Below are positions 5,515-35,480 of a stretch of DNA of 62,980 nucleotides, in pieces. This DNA comes from an uncultured Thermofilaceae archaeon (GTDB taxonomy: Archaea; Thermoproteota; Thermoprotei; Thermofilales; Thermofilaceae). Position 1 is the first letter of the stretch; each line of letters starts with the position of its first letter. The stretch spans positions 1 through 62,980 of the forward strand of contig CAZJJA010000001.1 in NCBI GenBank assembly GCA_964546235.1, given 5' to 3'. The notes under the pieces are model-generated. The model was not told the DNA's origin. It saw only the letters and a program-made list of their open reading frames with translations, and made no database searches. The position numbers and the translations under genes were made by a program.

Positions 5515-5559
5515 CTAGCCCACACACAAAAAAGAGGAGAATATATAACAGTTTAGAAG

Positions 5560-6078
5560 CTATGCTCTCTTATATCCTATCTTTCTCAGAAACTTGATCC
5601 TCTTTTTCTTATTTTCATCGTCCTCTACTCCCACCGGTGTAAAGCCGTCTACTACGCCAATAACTCCTCTGCCCTGGTCCGTTTCTACAACAATCACTTG
5701 TACTGGATTTGCTGTTGCACAGAATATGTTAACAACCTCGCTAACCCTCTTTATTTCGTTTAGCACATTTATTGGCCATGCTTCTCTTATGAAAATAACA
5801 AAAACATGTCCTGCTCCAATCTTCTCTGCAGTCTCTATAGCTGCCTTCACTAATTCCTTGTCATTTCCGTCATATCTAATCAGCCTATCTCCAGACGCTT
5901 CATTAAAAGCTAAACCAAACTTTATAGTTGGAGCGGAACTCACAAGCGCTTCAGCCAGGTCTTCTACAGTTTTTATGAAGTGTGACTGTCCTATTATTAC
6001 ATTAGATTTTTCGGGTAGCTTAACGTCAACAACCAGGATCTCGGCCTTACTCGGCATACTGTTAAAATCTATTCTCAT
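5560..6078 (-). CDS. Adenosine-specific-kinase-like protein (PF04008-type); trimmed to internal Met
   Basis: Conserved block [58 protein letters not shown]. The first 57 codons of the 229-aa ORF look non-coding, so I start at MRIDFNS (6078). Confidence 0.55.
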
Positions 6079-6879: not shown

Positions 6880-7681
6880 CCTCCTCTTTCACTCGTTCTA
6901 ATTTCTTAATTTTATCTTCTATTTCACTTTTCAATTTCAAGTACACTTCTTCTGATATCTGTCCATCCCTATAACGTTGCTCGAGCTTTGACAAAGCAAG
7001 CCTTAATTTTGCTATTTCTGGTTTCGCCTCTGCAACCTTTACTCGCTTGAAATGAGGAAGGATGAGTCTTTCAACTTCATTGAGTTTCTTTATTAATTCA
7101 TCCTGAAGATTTCTTTTTTCTGAAATCTTTCCTTCTAAATCACTTTTTAGTTCTTGATAGAGAGTTTCATCAATTATTCCAAGCTTATATTTTACTTCTA
7201 GCTTAGAAAGCTCGTCGATATATGTATCAATCGCCTGTTGAATACTCATGATAAGTTTTTCCATTTCTTCCCTCATGCTATCCCAGTATTCAATCAAAGC
7301 ACGGGCTTCTTTATCGTAAGTATCCCATAACCTGTTAAGATCTACAGCCTTTGAAGATATTTCCTCTAGTCTTTCTATAAGTTCTTCTTCTATCGGTTTT
7401 TCCTCGTGAACCAGGACTGGTGTTTCTTTCTCTTCCTCTTCTTCCTTTAAATAGACAGGTTCTGCCTCTTCCTTAGCAACCTCCTCCTCTACAGCTACAT
7501 GTTCCTCTGGTTTTTCGATCTCTTCCTCTCTTTCTTGATAGCTTATATAGTATGGACACTCCCAATATTCTGACAAACAAGGCATAAAAGCTGGGTCAAC
7601 TTCTGTGCCACCAGCATATGCACAATAGAATTTACCTTTCTCATCACGATAAAGTCCTGGACAAACGTTTCTATCCGACAT
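6872..7681 (-). CDS. Cys-rich N-domain + acidic linker + coiled-coil protein with two SHOCT-like motifs
   Basis: 269 aa. N-terminus is CPGLYRDEKGKFYCAY...MPCLSEYWECPYY, followed by a Glu-rich tract, then a region alignable by eye to the 167-aa neighbour (LWDTYDKEARALIEYW vs LWNQYREEALKVIYEW). Confidence 0.7.
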   Translation of the reverse strand: MSDRNVCPGLYRDEKGKFYCAYAGGTEVDPAFMPCLSEYWECPYYISYQEREEEIEKPEEHVAVEEEVAKEEAEPVYLKEEEEEKETPVLVHEEKPIEEELIERLEEISSKAVDLNRLWDTYDKEARALIEYWDSMREEMEKLIMSIQQAIDTYIDELSKLEVKYKLGIIDETLYQELKSDLEGKISEKRNLQDELIKKLNEVERLILPHFKRVKVAEAKPEIAKLRLALSKLEQRYRDGQISEEVYLKLKSEIEDKIKKLERVKEEVE

Positions 7682-9768: not shown

Positions 9769-10228
9769 ACCTCTTTATTAAATAGAGAGAAATAGCGACA
9801 AGACCTATTGCACCTATATCTTCTTCAATATCATCCGGATATACTAGCTTTCCCATTTTCATTTCTCTCATCGACAAACCAGGCTCAGAGCCTCCAAATA
9901 TAACCAAAACCCTTTTTGCTCCGCCTACTGTGGATTCCCAGACCTTTGTCAACGCTTCTCCTCCGTACTTTTTAGGCATAACTGTTAAAACAATATCAGG
10001 ATTTACTACATCAATAACATCTTCTAAGTCTGACAAGAAAACAAGGTTTAATCCGAGCTTTAATGCTATTTTTTGTGCTTCGGGTACGCCCGACTGAGCA
10101 GCGGATCCCGAAGCCTTCGAGATTATAAATGTCTTAAAGCCTAGTCCGTATACTATTTTTGCAGCTTCCACTACTTTTTGCGCGGAAACAACGTTGTGTA
10201 ATACCGGGATAACAACTATATCCGACAT
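9761..10228 (-). CDS. Conserved archaeal hypothetical protein (alpha/beta fold, function unknown)
   Basis: 155 aa with clean coding composition. Convergent with rpl37e. No catalytic motif recognised. Confidence 0.55.
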
Positions 10229-10251: not shown

Positions 10252-11226
10252 TTATATCTCCTTTTCTTCTTTCAGATACTTTAAAACAACTGATGCAATA
10301 GCTTTGGACAATGCAACTGGAACTGCTTCGCCAACCTGATTAAACTGTATATCACGTCCTCCGAGAAAAACATGGTTGTCTGGAAAACTCATAAGTCTCG
10401 CTTGTTCCCTTACAGTCAATATTCTGTCTTCAAATGGGTGAACAAACCTCGAAGACCCCATTACTGTAGGAGCTATCTTGTAGGGATGCAGCCGGACGTA
10501 GTTGGTTAGCACGCGCCCCCCATACCCTCTATAGTATACTAGTGCTTCTCCCCATCTCAACTTAGCCATTCTCTTCTGCTTGCTCTTGCTTACTGGAACA
10601 TATTCATGATTAGGAATTCCATAAAAGGGATCTGGAGGGGGCAAATCCCCTATAGCATCTATCACTTTAACTCTTTTTTTCAATTTTTTTGGACGTATTT
10701 TTATGTTTGATATAAAAACTCTATGTCTATGTGAAGGATTTCCATAATCTTCAGCATATAACCTGTTAAAATATATCTCCTCATAGCCTACCCTTTTAAA
10801 CTCCTCGCGTAATACTTCATCGAGCCCATCATCCATTATTCCAGGAACATTCTCCATCACAAAGACTCTAGGTCTCAAATCTCCAACAAATCTAATAAAA
10901 TGCAAAACCAGTACTCCTAGCGGATCTTCATAAAGCCTTTCCAGGGGATTTTTGCGCCGCCTAGGGTTAGCTCTAGTAAAAGCCTCACAGGGAGGACCCC
11001 CTATGATCACATCTGGACTTTCTCCAATTATATCTAATACGTCTTTAGCGTGCACTTTCTTTATATCTTCGACTATAACATGCACATCAGGAAAATTAAC
11101 TTTATAGGTTTCAGCAACAATTTCGTGATTTTCAATTGCTAATAATATCTTAAAACCCAAATCAACAAATCCTCTTGTAAAACCTCCTGCCCCTGCAAAG
11201 AGATCTATAACCGTATACATAGCCAT
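10252..11226 (-). CDS. DNA (cytosine-5)-methyltransferase family protein
   Basis: 324 aa with motif I DLFAGAGGFTRGF, motif IV GGPPCEAFT, motif VI ENVPG and C-terminal QVGEAVPVALSKAI. Confidence 0.85.
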   Translation of the reverse strand: MAMYTVIDLFAGAGGFTRGFVDLGFKILLAIENHEIVAETYKVNFPDVHVIVEDIKKVHAKDVLDIIGESPDVIIGGPPCEAFTRANPRRRKNPLERLYEDPLGVLVLHFIRFVGDLRPRVFVMENVPGIMDDGLDEVLREEFKRVGYEEIYFNRLYAEDYGNPSHRHRVFISNIKIRPKKLKKRVKVIDAIGDLPPPDPFYGIPNHEYVPVSKSKQKRMAKLRWGEALVYYRGYGGRVLTNYVRLHPYKIAPTVMGSSRFVHPFEDRILTVREQARLMSFPDNHVFLGGRDIQFNQVGEAVPVALSKAIASVVLKYLKEEKEI

Positions 11227-11254: not shown

Positions 11255-11561
11255 GTGCCGAGGGCCGATCGTACCCCCCCTTCCGTTTAGGCGGGATCCC
11301 TCTAAGGGTCCACCCGGACCTCGCGCGGGTCTCATAGGTCCTATTTGACCCTAAACCCACGGGACGGCTCTTTCACCCCTCCCTCCGGTGTCACTCACCT
11401 TACGGGATCATTTCCATCCACCGGAGTGGGTATGTTTCTGTGCCGTTGCCACGGCTTTCGCCGTGCCGCTTGCGCGGCCGTGGGCCCGCGGATTTGGGGG
11501 AGGTTCCACAGCTCCTCCTGTCGCCAGGAGGAGCCGGCGCCCGCCCGTCGGCCCTCGGCAC
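11255..11561 (-). ncRNA. rnpB: RNase P RNA
   Basis: GC island with a terminal helix (GUGCCGAGGGCCG/CGGCCCUCGGCAC). The minus strand carries RNase P-like blocks ...CACAGAAACAUACC..., GGGGUGAAAGAGCC, GGUCAAAUAGGACCUAUGAGACC and a G-rich P4-like 3' strand. Confidence 0.7.
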
Positions 11562-11597: not shown

Positions 11598-11925
11598 GGG
11601 TCCGGCGGGCATCCCCCGGAAGTGGCTCTTCCTACCCAGTGTATCACTATACACCCATTCTCACACCAGCTACCCCGTGAACGCGCTCCGCAGGTCTTAG
11701 GGCCGCTCCCTCCCGGGCCTAACCCGGTTCGACCTGTTCGGTGCTTCGGCCCCTCTTACGAGAGACCTAGCACCACGGAGCGCCCCACGGGACTGGTGTT
11801 CATCGTCTGAGCGTATAGTGATACACTGGGCGGTGTAGAGCGCCTCCCGGGGTTAACGCCCCCCGCCGTAAGCCCATTTGCGGTTACAGGGCAGGGCTAG
11901 CTCCCCGGGGCACCCCGCCGGACCC
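11598..11925 (-). ncRNA. ffs: Signal recognition particle (7S) RNA
   Basis: GC island closed by GGGUCCGGCGGG/CCCGCCGGACCC. The minus strand has the Alu-domain motif ...CCCUGUAACC... and the S-domain motif ...GGCCCGGGAGGGAGCGGCC.... A long helix 5 is formed by AGUGUAUCACUAUAC/GUAUAGUGAUACACU. Confidence 0.7.
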
Positions 11926-22396: not shown

Positions 22397-22494
22397 TGGG
22401 GCCCGGGCCGGGATTCGAACCCGGGTTCTCCGGCTCTCTGCCAGGGCTTTCACCGGCCACAGGCCGGCGTGTTAACCCCTACACCACCCGGGCC
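22397..22494 (-). tRNA. tRNA-His(GUG) with encoded G-1, 21-nt intron after position 37 and encoded CCA
   Basis: Minus strand reads G-GCCCGGG-UG-GUGU-AGGGGUUA-ACAC-G-CCGGC-CUGUGG[intron CCGGUGAAAGCCCUGGCAGAG]A-GCCGG-AGAAC-CCGGG-UUCGAAU-CCCGG-CCCGGGC-C-CCA. Confidence 0.85.
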
Positions 22495-26030: not shown

Positions 26031-26106
26031 ACACTTTGAACCAATTTATAATAACTATTTTAATCTTCGCAGATGTTTAAACTCATTTTAAAGTTTATAA
26101 AGCCCT

Positions 26107-26205
26107 GGGTGCGCTGTAGCCGCCTGTTAACACGCCGTTTCACAGCTGTGGCGGTACATCGCCTTTTAGCTTGCGGCGCTCTCTGCAGGCGGCCTACGCG
26201 CACCC
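26107..26205. ncRNA. Unassigned GC-rich structured element (about 20-bp terminal inverted repeat enclosing about 59 nt)
   Basis: GGGUGCGC-U-GUAGCCGCCUG...CAGGCGGC-C-UAC-GCGCACCC, with two internal CGCC/GGCG mini-hairpins. A sharp GC island in an AT-rich spacer. No tRNA, C/D or H/ACA boxes. Strand unknown. Confidence 0.35.
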
Positions 26206-26443
26206 ATCCATTTATAAGTAAAGAGAGGCTGTTCTTAAAATCTTTGGCATATCAATCCATAAAAAGAGGGATCATTACTAGATGAAAGCTTACACATCGG
26301 GTCATTATAAGAACATCACATCATCCAAAAGATCCGTCACATTTATAGAAATTATCGGACGAAAAGAACATCTTGTATTCCTTATCAAGGCTTATATTTA
26401 TATTATTTTATAAATCACGAAAAATCATACAAAAATCGTAAAA

Positions 26444-26525
26444 TGGAGCCGGGGCCGGGACTTGAACCCGGGCATAACGGGTCGCCACAGGGCTTTCCAC
26501 TGCAGCTTGGGCAAGCCGCGGCCCC
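26444..26525 (-). tRNA. Atypical tRNA module: canonical T arm + acceptor 3' strand + U73 + CCA, 5' part unresolved (split, multi-intron or pseudogene)
   Basis: Minus strand ends ...GUUAUG-CCGGG-UUCAAGU-CCCGG-CCCCGGC-U-CCA followed by a T run. The upstream 45 nt are GC-rich, contain CUGCAG, and lack the GCCGGGG partner. Confidence 0.45.
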
Positions 26526-26546
26526 AGTTTATCTTTTGTCTAGAAG

Positions 26547-26554
26547 ATTATAAC
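26547..26554. promoter_or_regulatory. Near-palindromic TATA-like box, possible bidirectional promoter
   Basis: ATTATAAC / GTTATAAT. Lies 22 nt from the first G of the minus-strand RNA (26525) and 23 nt from GCCGGGUAG on the plus strand (26577). Confidence 0.4.
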
Positions 26555-26561
26555 TTTGACG

Positions 26562-26624
26562 GTGGGGGTCGCCCTTGCCGGGTAGTCCTCATGTATTCGG
26601 ACCACTGAAGGGCGCTCATCCCCC
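26562..26624. other. GC-rich stem-loop abutting the Nudix stop codon (3'-UTR structure or plus-strand small RNA)
   Basis: GGGGG-U-CGCCCUU / AAGGGCG-CUCAU-CCCCC enclosing GCCGGGUA-GUCC-UCAUGUAUUC-GGAC-CACUG. Confidence 0.3.
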
Positions 26625-30762: not shown

Positions 30763-30786
30763 ACTAACATTCAACCTTGAAAATGA

Positions 30787-30862
30787 GGGCCCGTGGCCTA
30801 GAGGATATGGCGGCGGCCACCTTCAACTAGAAGGCCGCAGTTCGGAAGGGCTCCCACCCCCC
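30787..30862 (+). ncRNA. tRNA-like 5' module (acceptor 5' strand + D arm) fused to a non-tRNA GC-rich tail; no T arm
   Basis: GGGCCCG-U-G-GCCU-AGAGGAUA-UGGC-G, then hairpin GCGGCC-ACCUUCAACUAGAA-GGCCGC, then AGUUCGGAAGGGCUCCCACCCCCC. 76 nt in total. No CGGGCCC partner strand. Confidence 0.35.
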
Positions 30863-30871
30863 AATTTATAT

Positions 30872-35405: not shown

Positions 35406-35480
35406 GGGCCCGTAGTCTAGTGGAAGGATGCCGCCCTGACACGGCGGTGGTCCCGGGTTCGAGTCCCGGCGGGCCCACCA
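35406..35480 (+). tRNA. tRNA-Val(GAC), no intron, CCA encoded
   Basis: GGGCCCG-UA-GUCU-AGUGGAA-GGAU-G-CCGCC-CUGACAC-GGCGG-UGGUC-CCGGG-UUCGAGU-CCCGG-CGGGCCC-A-CCA. Confidence 0.9.

Follow-up and report, generated by a model that had tools for sequence, protein, structure and literature searches.

The minus-strand unit at positions 26444-26525, hereafter RNA B, is probably the 3'-half gene of a split, trans-spliced tRNA-Cys(GCA), with its junction between tRNA positions 30 and 31 and with an extra intron at 37/38, as far as this can be read from its sequence and from those of its relatives. The call of a split gene is strong but incomplete, because the 5' half was not found in the window, i.e. 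the whole stretch of 62,980 nucleotides that was analysed, or within 10 kb in a relative. A split tRNA had already been suggested in an earlier note on this DNA, and it is also the best reading at which we arrived for a unit with its own promoter and a tRNA 3' module that has no 5' half.

The archaeal source of the window is indicated by its SRP RNA and RNase P RNA, both of archaeal type, and by its intron-bearing tRNAs. The G+C content is 38%, the DnaG protein shares about 65% identity with its counterparts in Thermofilum and Infirmifilum, and the DNA is also present in hydrothermal-vent metagenome assemblies and in one MAG. The RNA B locus itself was found in the MAGs GCA_053989335.1, GCA_053991295.1 and GCA_027027955.1 and in the JGI contigs Ga0256833_1000018 and Ga0256835_1000036. 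In the window it lies in the gap between a Nudix gene (27148 to 26624) and dnaG (26030 to 24795), both on the minus strand. This gap is AT-rich and contains three GC-rich islands, all read on the minus strand: island A (about 26564-26624), RNA B, which is a unit of 82 nt, and island C (26103-26206, in the sense of dnaG).

Several other RNA genes of the window give the setting of this gap. RNase P RNA (11260-11556) and SRP RNA (11603-11920) lie head to tail on the minus strand with 46 nt between them, and two further short GC-rich islands were seen at 10074-10119 and 10488-10522, the former of which contains CUGA and could be a small guide RNA. The window has three ordinary tRNA genes, and the CCA is encoded in all of them. 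In the case of the tRNA at 22397-22493 (minus), which has a 21-nt intron with a clean bulge-helix-bulge (BHB), ARAGORN gave the label tRNA-Thr(tgt); tRNA-His(GUG) fits the sequence better, on the basis of the G at -1, C73 and the loop C-U-GUG-G. The tRNA-Val gene (35406-35480) and a deacetylase gene are found 9 kb from RNA B. In relatives the tRNA-Val ortholog (L011 117-229, which is L140 9606-9718, and L012 83-191; L numbers are our handles for the related loci) is longer by about 40-50 nt, apparently through two introns, and the window copy has no such insertions. Intron gain or loss within the Thermofilaceae-like group is rapid.

Island C is a long hairpin of about 100 nt with TTTATAA-like boxes on both sides, and in each case dnaG follows directly. 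Its orthologs are found in L010 (2558-2661), L011 (2845-2948), L012 (2830-2932), L136 (about 5545-5621) and L137 (about 2020-2125). Compensatory changes occur at five pairs over four sequences, and there are several G:U pairs that could form in the dnaG sense alone. The modelled layout, with a 9-bp stem, an internal loop, an upper stem and an ACA after the inner stem, may recall an H/ACA guide RNA; no Rfam family matched island C.

The 3' end of RNA B is that of a tRNA. On the minus strand, the T stem CCGGG/CCCGG with the loop UUCAAGU (26471-26455) is followed by the acceptor 3' strand CCCCGGC (26454-26448), by U73 (26447), by CCA (26446-26444) and then by TTTT, so that the earlier reading of the strand from 26525 to 26444 is exact in the sequence. 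The T-rich tract after the CCA, UUUUACGAUUUUUG (26430..26443), is a likely terminator, and such tracts follow the CCA in most of the orthologs. Hence a contiguous tRNA 3' portion consisting of T arm, acceptor 3' strand and discriminator is present, and the 5' acceptor strand in cis is absent: no GCCGGGG partner occurs upstream on the minus strand, as had been noted before, and scans with ARAGORN and with the Rfam tRNA model gave no gene at this place. An alternative acceptor, GGGGCCG/CGGCUCC with G3:U70 and A73, which would be tRNA-Ala-like, was rejected, since CCC would be left over between T stem and acceptor and the gene would have no CCA of its own. The 3' end given above is favoured over this one because the CCA is encoded by all three ordinary tRNA genes of the window.

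At the other end, RNA B appears to have its own BRE/TATA promoter. The TATA-like element ATTATAAC lies at 26547-26554, at the distances previously described, i.e. 22 nt from 26525 and 23 nt from 26577, and the BRE/TATA-like element AAAGTTATAAT (26547..26557, minus) as a whole stops 22 nt short of the first G of RNA B. An A/T box stands 22-25 nt upstream of GGGG in six of six orthologs, the variants being AAAGTTATAAT, AAAGTTATTAT, AAAGTATAATA and CTTATTAATAT.

The orthologs were obtained by BLAST against loci that were fetched through the neighbouring proteins. Six were found in Thermofilaceae-like vent archaea (window, L137, L139, L011/L140, L012, which equals L013, and L136), and they occur in two genomic contexts. 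One context, shared by the window, L137 and L139, runs from Nudix through island A to RNA B; the other, that of L011/L140, L012 and L136, runs from S24e through tRNA-Val and RNA B to a deacetylase gene on the opposite strand, with 5.5 kb between the Nudix gene and RNA B in L140. Next to the deacetylase genes of T. pendens and I. lucidum, nothing comparable to RNA B was found. The promoter box, the leader or 5' block, the exons and the tail are kept in all six orthologs, while the intron varies and the flanks do not align; the flanking proteins DnaG and Nudix are only about 59-73% identical across these genomes. Conservation of an 82-nt unit with its promoter in six genomes with unalignable flanks places the feature beyond chance, and the retention of promoter and RNA B within unalignable intergenic surroundings indicates one unit under selection that moved as a unit. 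As judged from these alignments, RNA B is a conserved gene and not a relic.

One parse fits all six orthologs. From its 5' end, RNA B starts with the GC-rich leader GGGGCCGCGGC of 11 nt (26515..26525), which is invariant in the six sequences and which we propose to pair in trans with the trailer of a separate 5' half, forming the helix h'. Then comes a linker of 1-2 nt, in which this trans helix probably ends; it reads UU in the window (26513..26514) and AU, AC or A in orthologs. The next four nucleotides, GCCC (26509..26512; GUCC, GCCU or ACCC in orthologs), are the putative 3' strand of the BHB central helix and would pair with positions 25-28 of the 5' half. Their three substitutions are all transitions that would preserve the pairs, and a purine at the first and pyrimidines at the second to fourth positions are kept. 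The following 3-nt bulge A-N-G (26506..26508; AA/G, with the slash at the proposed cleavage before G31) has an invariant A and an invariant G, and its middle base is A, C or G among the six orthologs. It is followed by the exon G31-C32-U33-G34-C35-A36-G37 (26500..26506), which is again invariant in all six and carries the anticodon GCA at 26503-26501.

After G37 an intron is placed at the canonical 37/38 site, with 17 nt in the window (26483..26499) and 15-17 nt in orthologs. It contains GUGG plus 2 nt, which would pair with C32-C35. The intron sequence varies, yet three to four of these four pairs are kept by the versions GUGG, GUAG, ACAG and GCAA. The geometry is the same as that of the intron in the window tRNA at 22400-22493; some orthologs have a weak h' helix at the 37/38 intron, and the motif is therefore a relaxed one. 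In other organisms' contigs of run X9, the match begins from A38 (26482/26483) on, and the divergent part upstream ends in GUAG plus 2 nt. The last exon, from A38 to the CCA (26444..26482), comprises positions 39-43 (CCCGU here; CCCGU, CCCGC or CCUGC in orthologs), the variable loop UAUGC, the T arm, CCCCGGC, U73 and CCA. It is identical between window and L011 at 35 of 39 positions, and the variable loop has 5 nt, or 7 nt in L136.

The interruption on the 5' side of the anticodon loop is what points to a split gene. The strand that should pair with positions 39-43 (GCGG-G) is not contiguous with C32; in its place, upstream of the exon that starts at G31, stand the bulge, the 4-nt strand and the invariant GC-rich leader. 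By their sequence and order, these three elements are the putative 3' side of an hBHBh' motif. Only the 3' side of a BHB is visible at the leader/exon boundary, and the conservation of the 4-nt strand and of the A-N-G bulge fits it. In addition, the 4-nt strand and positions 43/42 each place a demand on positions 27/28 of the 5' half, and these demands are compatible in all six orthologs: position 27 should be G (A where both partners are U) and position 28 should be C or U, namely U in L012 and L136. This agreement, seen in the alignment, is a consistency check and not a proof.

The identity of the tRNA follows from the same exons. The combination of the GCA anticodon, G37, U73 and CCCCGGC is what we take to be archaeal tRNA-Cys, and the assignment to tRNA-Cys(GCA), which had been raised in the earlier note, is borne out by the CUGCAG motif together with U73 and CCCCGGC. 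With the intron removed and a generic 5' part added, ARAGORN returned tRNA-Cys(GCA) in four of the four orthologs tested, and on RNA B alone it made no call. Scans with the Rfam tRNA model and with ARAGORN, introns allowed, gave no complete cloverleaf in cis at RNA B, and neither program folded 26444-26525 with its neighbours as an ordinary intron-containing tRNA. That no anticodon arm could be built in the earlier note is explained by the ordinary intron at 37/38, which had been overlooked. The self-fold that had been drawn for the 5' part (GCCGC-GGCUU...AAGCC-CU-GUGGC) has no conservation in the orthologs.

Other ways of completing the tRNA were tried and rejected. Anticodon readings GGC, GUG or loop-GCC come without matching stems. 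Taking positions 27-30 from the leader GCGG in cis requires an insert of 8-9 nt at 30/31 that is unable to form a BHB, and it was discarded because no leader would be left for joining positions 1-26. A circularly permuted gene does not fit either: behind the CCA comes AT-rich sequence with T-runs, in which no GC-rich 5' part is found. In L140, ARAGORN reported a 'tRNA-Thr with a 131-nt intron', which is spurious, as it borrows antisense coding sequence and is not conserved.

Altogether, we propose the following course of events. RNA B would be transcribed from its own BRE/TATA promoter, yielding a transcript with a GC-rich leader of 11-13 nt, the 4-nt helix strand, the 3-nt bulge and then tRNA positions 31-37, continuing with the 15-17 nt intron at 37/38 and with positions 38-76 including the encoded CCA. 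By analogy to known split tRNAs, a separate 5'-half transcript would supply positions 1-30, starting with GCCGGGG and ending at about GGGCGG, followed by 1 nt and by a leader-complementary trailer of about AAGCCGCGGCCCC. The two RNAs would anneal to form a bulge-helix-bulge at 30/31, where the archaeal splicing endonuclease is expected to cut both bulges and also to excise the 37/38 intron, and an RtcB-type ligase would join the exons to a tRNA-Cys of 76 nt.

The 5' half to be expected would thus read GCCGGGG...GGGCGG with a GCCGCGGCCCC trailer, or, as a pattern, GCCGGGG-N(16-24)-GGG[CU][AG]G-N(1-4)-GCCGCGGCC with a TATA box before it. In the 63-kb window, no GCCGGGG-led GC-rich unit and no leader-complementary trailer was detected when G:U wobble was allowed and all GC-rich islands were covered. 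The predicted 5' half was likewise not seen in L140, a relative of which 21 kb were covered, about 10 kb to each side of RNA B, nor in the other related loci examined. Thus the check that had been suggested earlier, a search for a GCCGGGG-led 5' half with a trailer complementary to 26482-26525, returned no candidate in the window, in the L140 flanks or in the other loci. A genome-collection search with DnaG gave only distant bacterial Toprim fragments. A metagenome pattern scan, in which the pattern was used without the 1-2 nt linker, gave, among the matches listed, chance ones in GC-rich bacteria, and in the vent metatranscriptomes no run with coverage of the RNA B locus was found.

Another GC-rich RNA of the window was observed at 30786-30865 on the plus strand behind a TATA-like box, with an ortholog in L140 at about 7190-7275 (+). 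It has a tRNA-like start, GGGCCCGUGGCCUAGAGGAUAUGGC, consisting of an acceptor 5' strand and a D arm with GG, then a 6-bp stem GCGGCC/GGCCGC with a loop of 13-14 nt, and it is without T arm. Neither Rfam nor ARAGORN gave a match. It contains GCGGCGGCCAC, which is off the exact complement of the RNA B leader at 2 of 11 positions. Judged by its sequence, this RNA may be tRNA-like or a further piece of a disrupted tRNA.

The DNA on the other side of the TATA box had been interpreted as one member of a divergent pair of small-RNA modules around this box, with GCCGGGTAGTCC at 26577 on the plus strand. Taken literally, the plus-strand module that starts there (GCCGGGUAGUCC...) would be the 5' half of the tRNA, divergently transcribed from a shared promoter. 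Its GCCGGG complements six of the seven acceptor bases, its UAGUCC is similar to positions 8-13 of a tRNA, the distance to the TATA box is suitable in either direction, and its place beside RNA B is kept in the window, L137 and L139. Nonetheless we consider this reading very improbable, as the element is a minus-sense structure. In the three helices of island A, 97.1% of the cells are paired in the minus (Nudix) sense versus 88.2% in the plus sense; two pairs change on both sides in the minus sense (C:G to G:C and G:C to U:G) versus one in the plus sense; a G:U pair found in four of four sequences becomes an unpaired A.C on the plus strand; and the fold z-score is -3.07 for the minus versus -0.89 for the plus strand. 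Because the helices are better in the Nudix sense, GCCGGGUAGUCC is best seen as the strand opposite an invariant part of an RNA read on the minus strand, and the divergent pair does not hold, as GCCGGGUAGUCC sits inside this structured RNA. Furthermore, the position of island A is bound to the Nudix stop codon: in six genomes (window, L137, L138, L139, L140 and L141) it directly follows the Nudix gene, RNA B comes next in only three of these (window, L137 and L139), in two RNA B is 5.5 kb away or absent from the sequence examined, and three RNA B orthologs have no island A beside them. The module also has no G7 and no G18G19, it would give a '5' exon' of 39 nt and a C30:C40 clash, and its patchy pairing with RNA B contains 2x6 and 6x9 internal loops in place of a BHB, with only CCCC pairing to the invariant leader. 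ARAGORN made no call when the plus strand of island A was supplied as the 5' part of RNA B, and Rfam rejects the module as well.

Island A itself (26564..26624, minus) does not belong to the tRNA. It is a conserved, structured RNA and begins at the Nudix stop codon or directly behind it. Its motif order is GGGAUGA...CCGA...RUGAGGA...GYGA/CGGA, and the second and fourth motifs (D'-like and D-like) are each immediately preceded by an invariant stretch. By its sequence it resembles a box C/D guide RNA that may be co-transcribed with Nudix; the D box is off consensus, the spacers have 15 and 13 nt, and the two 'guides' pair with each other. No Rfam family matched and no guide target was found in the sequences examined. 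The invariant putative guide stretches are CCUUCAGUGG and UACCCGGCAAGG; if island A acts as a guide RNA, CCACUGAAGG and CCUUGCCGGGUA would be the sequences to expect in the rRNAs or tRNAs of the organism. GGACUACCCGG of island A is complementary to CCGGGUAGUCC, which we take to be a universal 16S segment, and it is not positioned as a D-box guide requires. In L138 (4600-4678), a Nudix relative with 76% identity, the conserved TATA box after island A is followed by a sequence other than RNA B, which ends ...CGCCCCGGCCCCGGAGCGTTCGGG at the contig end; this could be a different arrangement or a chimeric contig end.

Two further explanations have to be weighed against a split tRNA-Cys, and we regard both as unlikely. 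RNA B could be a leftover tRNA-Cys 3' fragment, e.g. an attachment-site duplicate or the product of a rearrangement, which is non-functional or redundant with an intact gene elsewhere. Integration into tRNA genes does leave tRNA fragments behind, according to a review (PMC4033280, citing Sugahara 2012). RNA B lies at a synteny breakpoint, on the Nudix side in one sub-lineage and beside tRNA-Val and the deacetylase in another, and the failure to find the 5' half in the window and in the relatives' loci examined would be explained as well. A leftover of this kind would be expected to decay, whereas the 82-nt unit, the spaced promoter box and a 19-nt leader that is not tRNA sequence are conserved, next to intergenic DNA that cannot be aligned and to proteins with the low identities given above. 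Moreover, the intron still pairs with the anticodon loop although its sequence changes, promoter and unit moved together, and no integrase gene is nearby. At a slightly lower probability, RNA B alone could be a tRNA-like, minihelix-type RNA with a non-decoding role, in which GGGGCCG pairs with CGGCCCC or CGGCUCC to form an acceptor-like helix stacked on the T arm. Minimum free energy and consensus folds do pair the 5' end with the 3' region, the length of 80-83 nt is near that of a full tRNA, and the tRNA-like domain of the Rfam tmRNA model, in a permissive scan, uses the pairing of GGGGCCG with CGGCUCC plus A; this match is sub-threshold, with 20.9 bits versus a gathering score of 47 (E 2e-6 in a 701-nt search). 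The leader can also pair in cis with the exon 31-35 (GCGGC/GCUGC), as well as with CGGCCCC, and these cis pairings are not assessable by covariation, since both partners are invariant. The columns of the proposed helix on the T arm likewise show no covariation, the fold z-scores are modest (-2.5, -0.95 and -2.0), and the cis fold either disrupts the T stem or leaves CCC between T stem and acceptor. Nor would this reading account for the encoded U-CCA, for the anticodon loop with GCA or for an intron that can be spliced.

There is also a small chance that the missing 5' part is itself in pieces, so that the tRNA-Cys would be tri-split, or that RNA B is never joined and stands alone with an acceptor-like helix closed by the leader. 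Either case, if true, would be a tRNA architecture not yet described. The RNA with GCGGCGGCCAC at 30786-30865 is a weaker hint in this direction.

Split tRNA genes are rare, and they have a central place in the controversy over an ancient or a recent origin of tRNA fragmentation; a review of 2014 counted 29 of them, for 12 anticodons, in seven genomes (PMC4033280). [quoted passage not shown] 2011, PMC3218864; Randau et al. 2005). In Staphylothermus and Nanoarchaeum, the split tRNA-Lys has a 30/31 junction, a canonical BHB (hBHBh') and a perfect trans helix of 13 nt, and its 3' precursor of about 65 nt holds a mature part of 43 nt (PMC3218864). Like these genes, RNA B has its own promoter, a putative 30/31 junction, a leader region of about 19-22 nt (here 19) whose GC-rich part would serve a trans helix of 11-13 nt beside a putative BHB, and a mature part of 43 nt in addition to the encoded CCA. 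Unlike them, it would belong to Cys(GCA) in a Thermofilaceae-like lineage, as opposed to Lys in Desulfurococcales and Nanoarchaeota, and its 3' half carries an ordinary 37/38 intron. The Staphylothermus 5' half is 4.5 kb away, whereas the partner of RNA B was not found within the searched sequence.

In the case of the recently split tRNAs of the T. aggregans type, the halves keep their promoters, as RNA B does, and they are adjacent on opposite strands, which is the arrangement that the earlier note had in mind. These genes have a 37/38 junction, adjacent halves and a trans stem of 14 bp; RNA B has a 30/31 junction and no partner nearby, and its neighbour on the opposite strand is the antisense of an unrelated minus-strand RNA, island A. 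Caldivirga maquilingensis, which in a broad sense is also a crenarchaeon of the Thermoproteales, has split and tri-split tRNAs from fragmented genes that are joined at a BHB; their isoacceptors and junctions differ from those of RNA B (Fujishima et al. 2009, cited in PMC4033280).

The closest cultured lineage, Thermofilum, is already known for permuted and multi-intron tRNA genes. The permuted tRNA-iMet and tRNA-Tyr genes of Thermofilum pendens share with RNA B the disruption of the gene, the encoded CCA and additional canonical introns (PMC3218864). In T. pendens both parts are in one transcript and are joined at 59/60, whereas in RNA B the CCA is followed by a T-run, with no 5' part downstream. 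In the literature that we searched, no report of a split tRNA-Cys, nor of a split tRNA in Thermofilaceae, was found. Because standard tRNA finders miss RNA B, automated annotation would report these MAGs as lacking tRNA-Cys. Owing to the orthologs in two genomic contexts, the 3' half is visible as a promoter-plus-gene unit that has moved, which is unusual. Split tRNAs are a known kind (PMC4033280), and the Cys isoacceptor and the Thermofilaceae-like lineage would be new. If true, this would be a new split isoacceptor in a lineage with only permuted genes so far, a second independent use of the 30/31 junction, and a split tRNA-Cys that is conserved across several uncultured Thermofilaceae-like genera.
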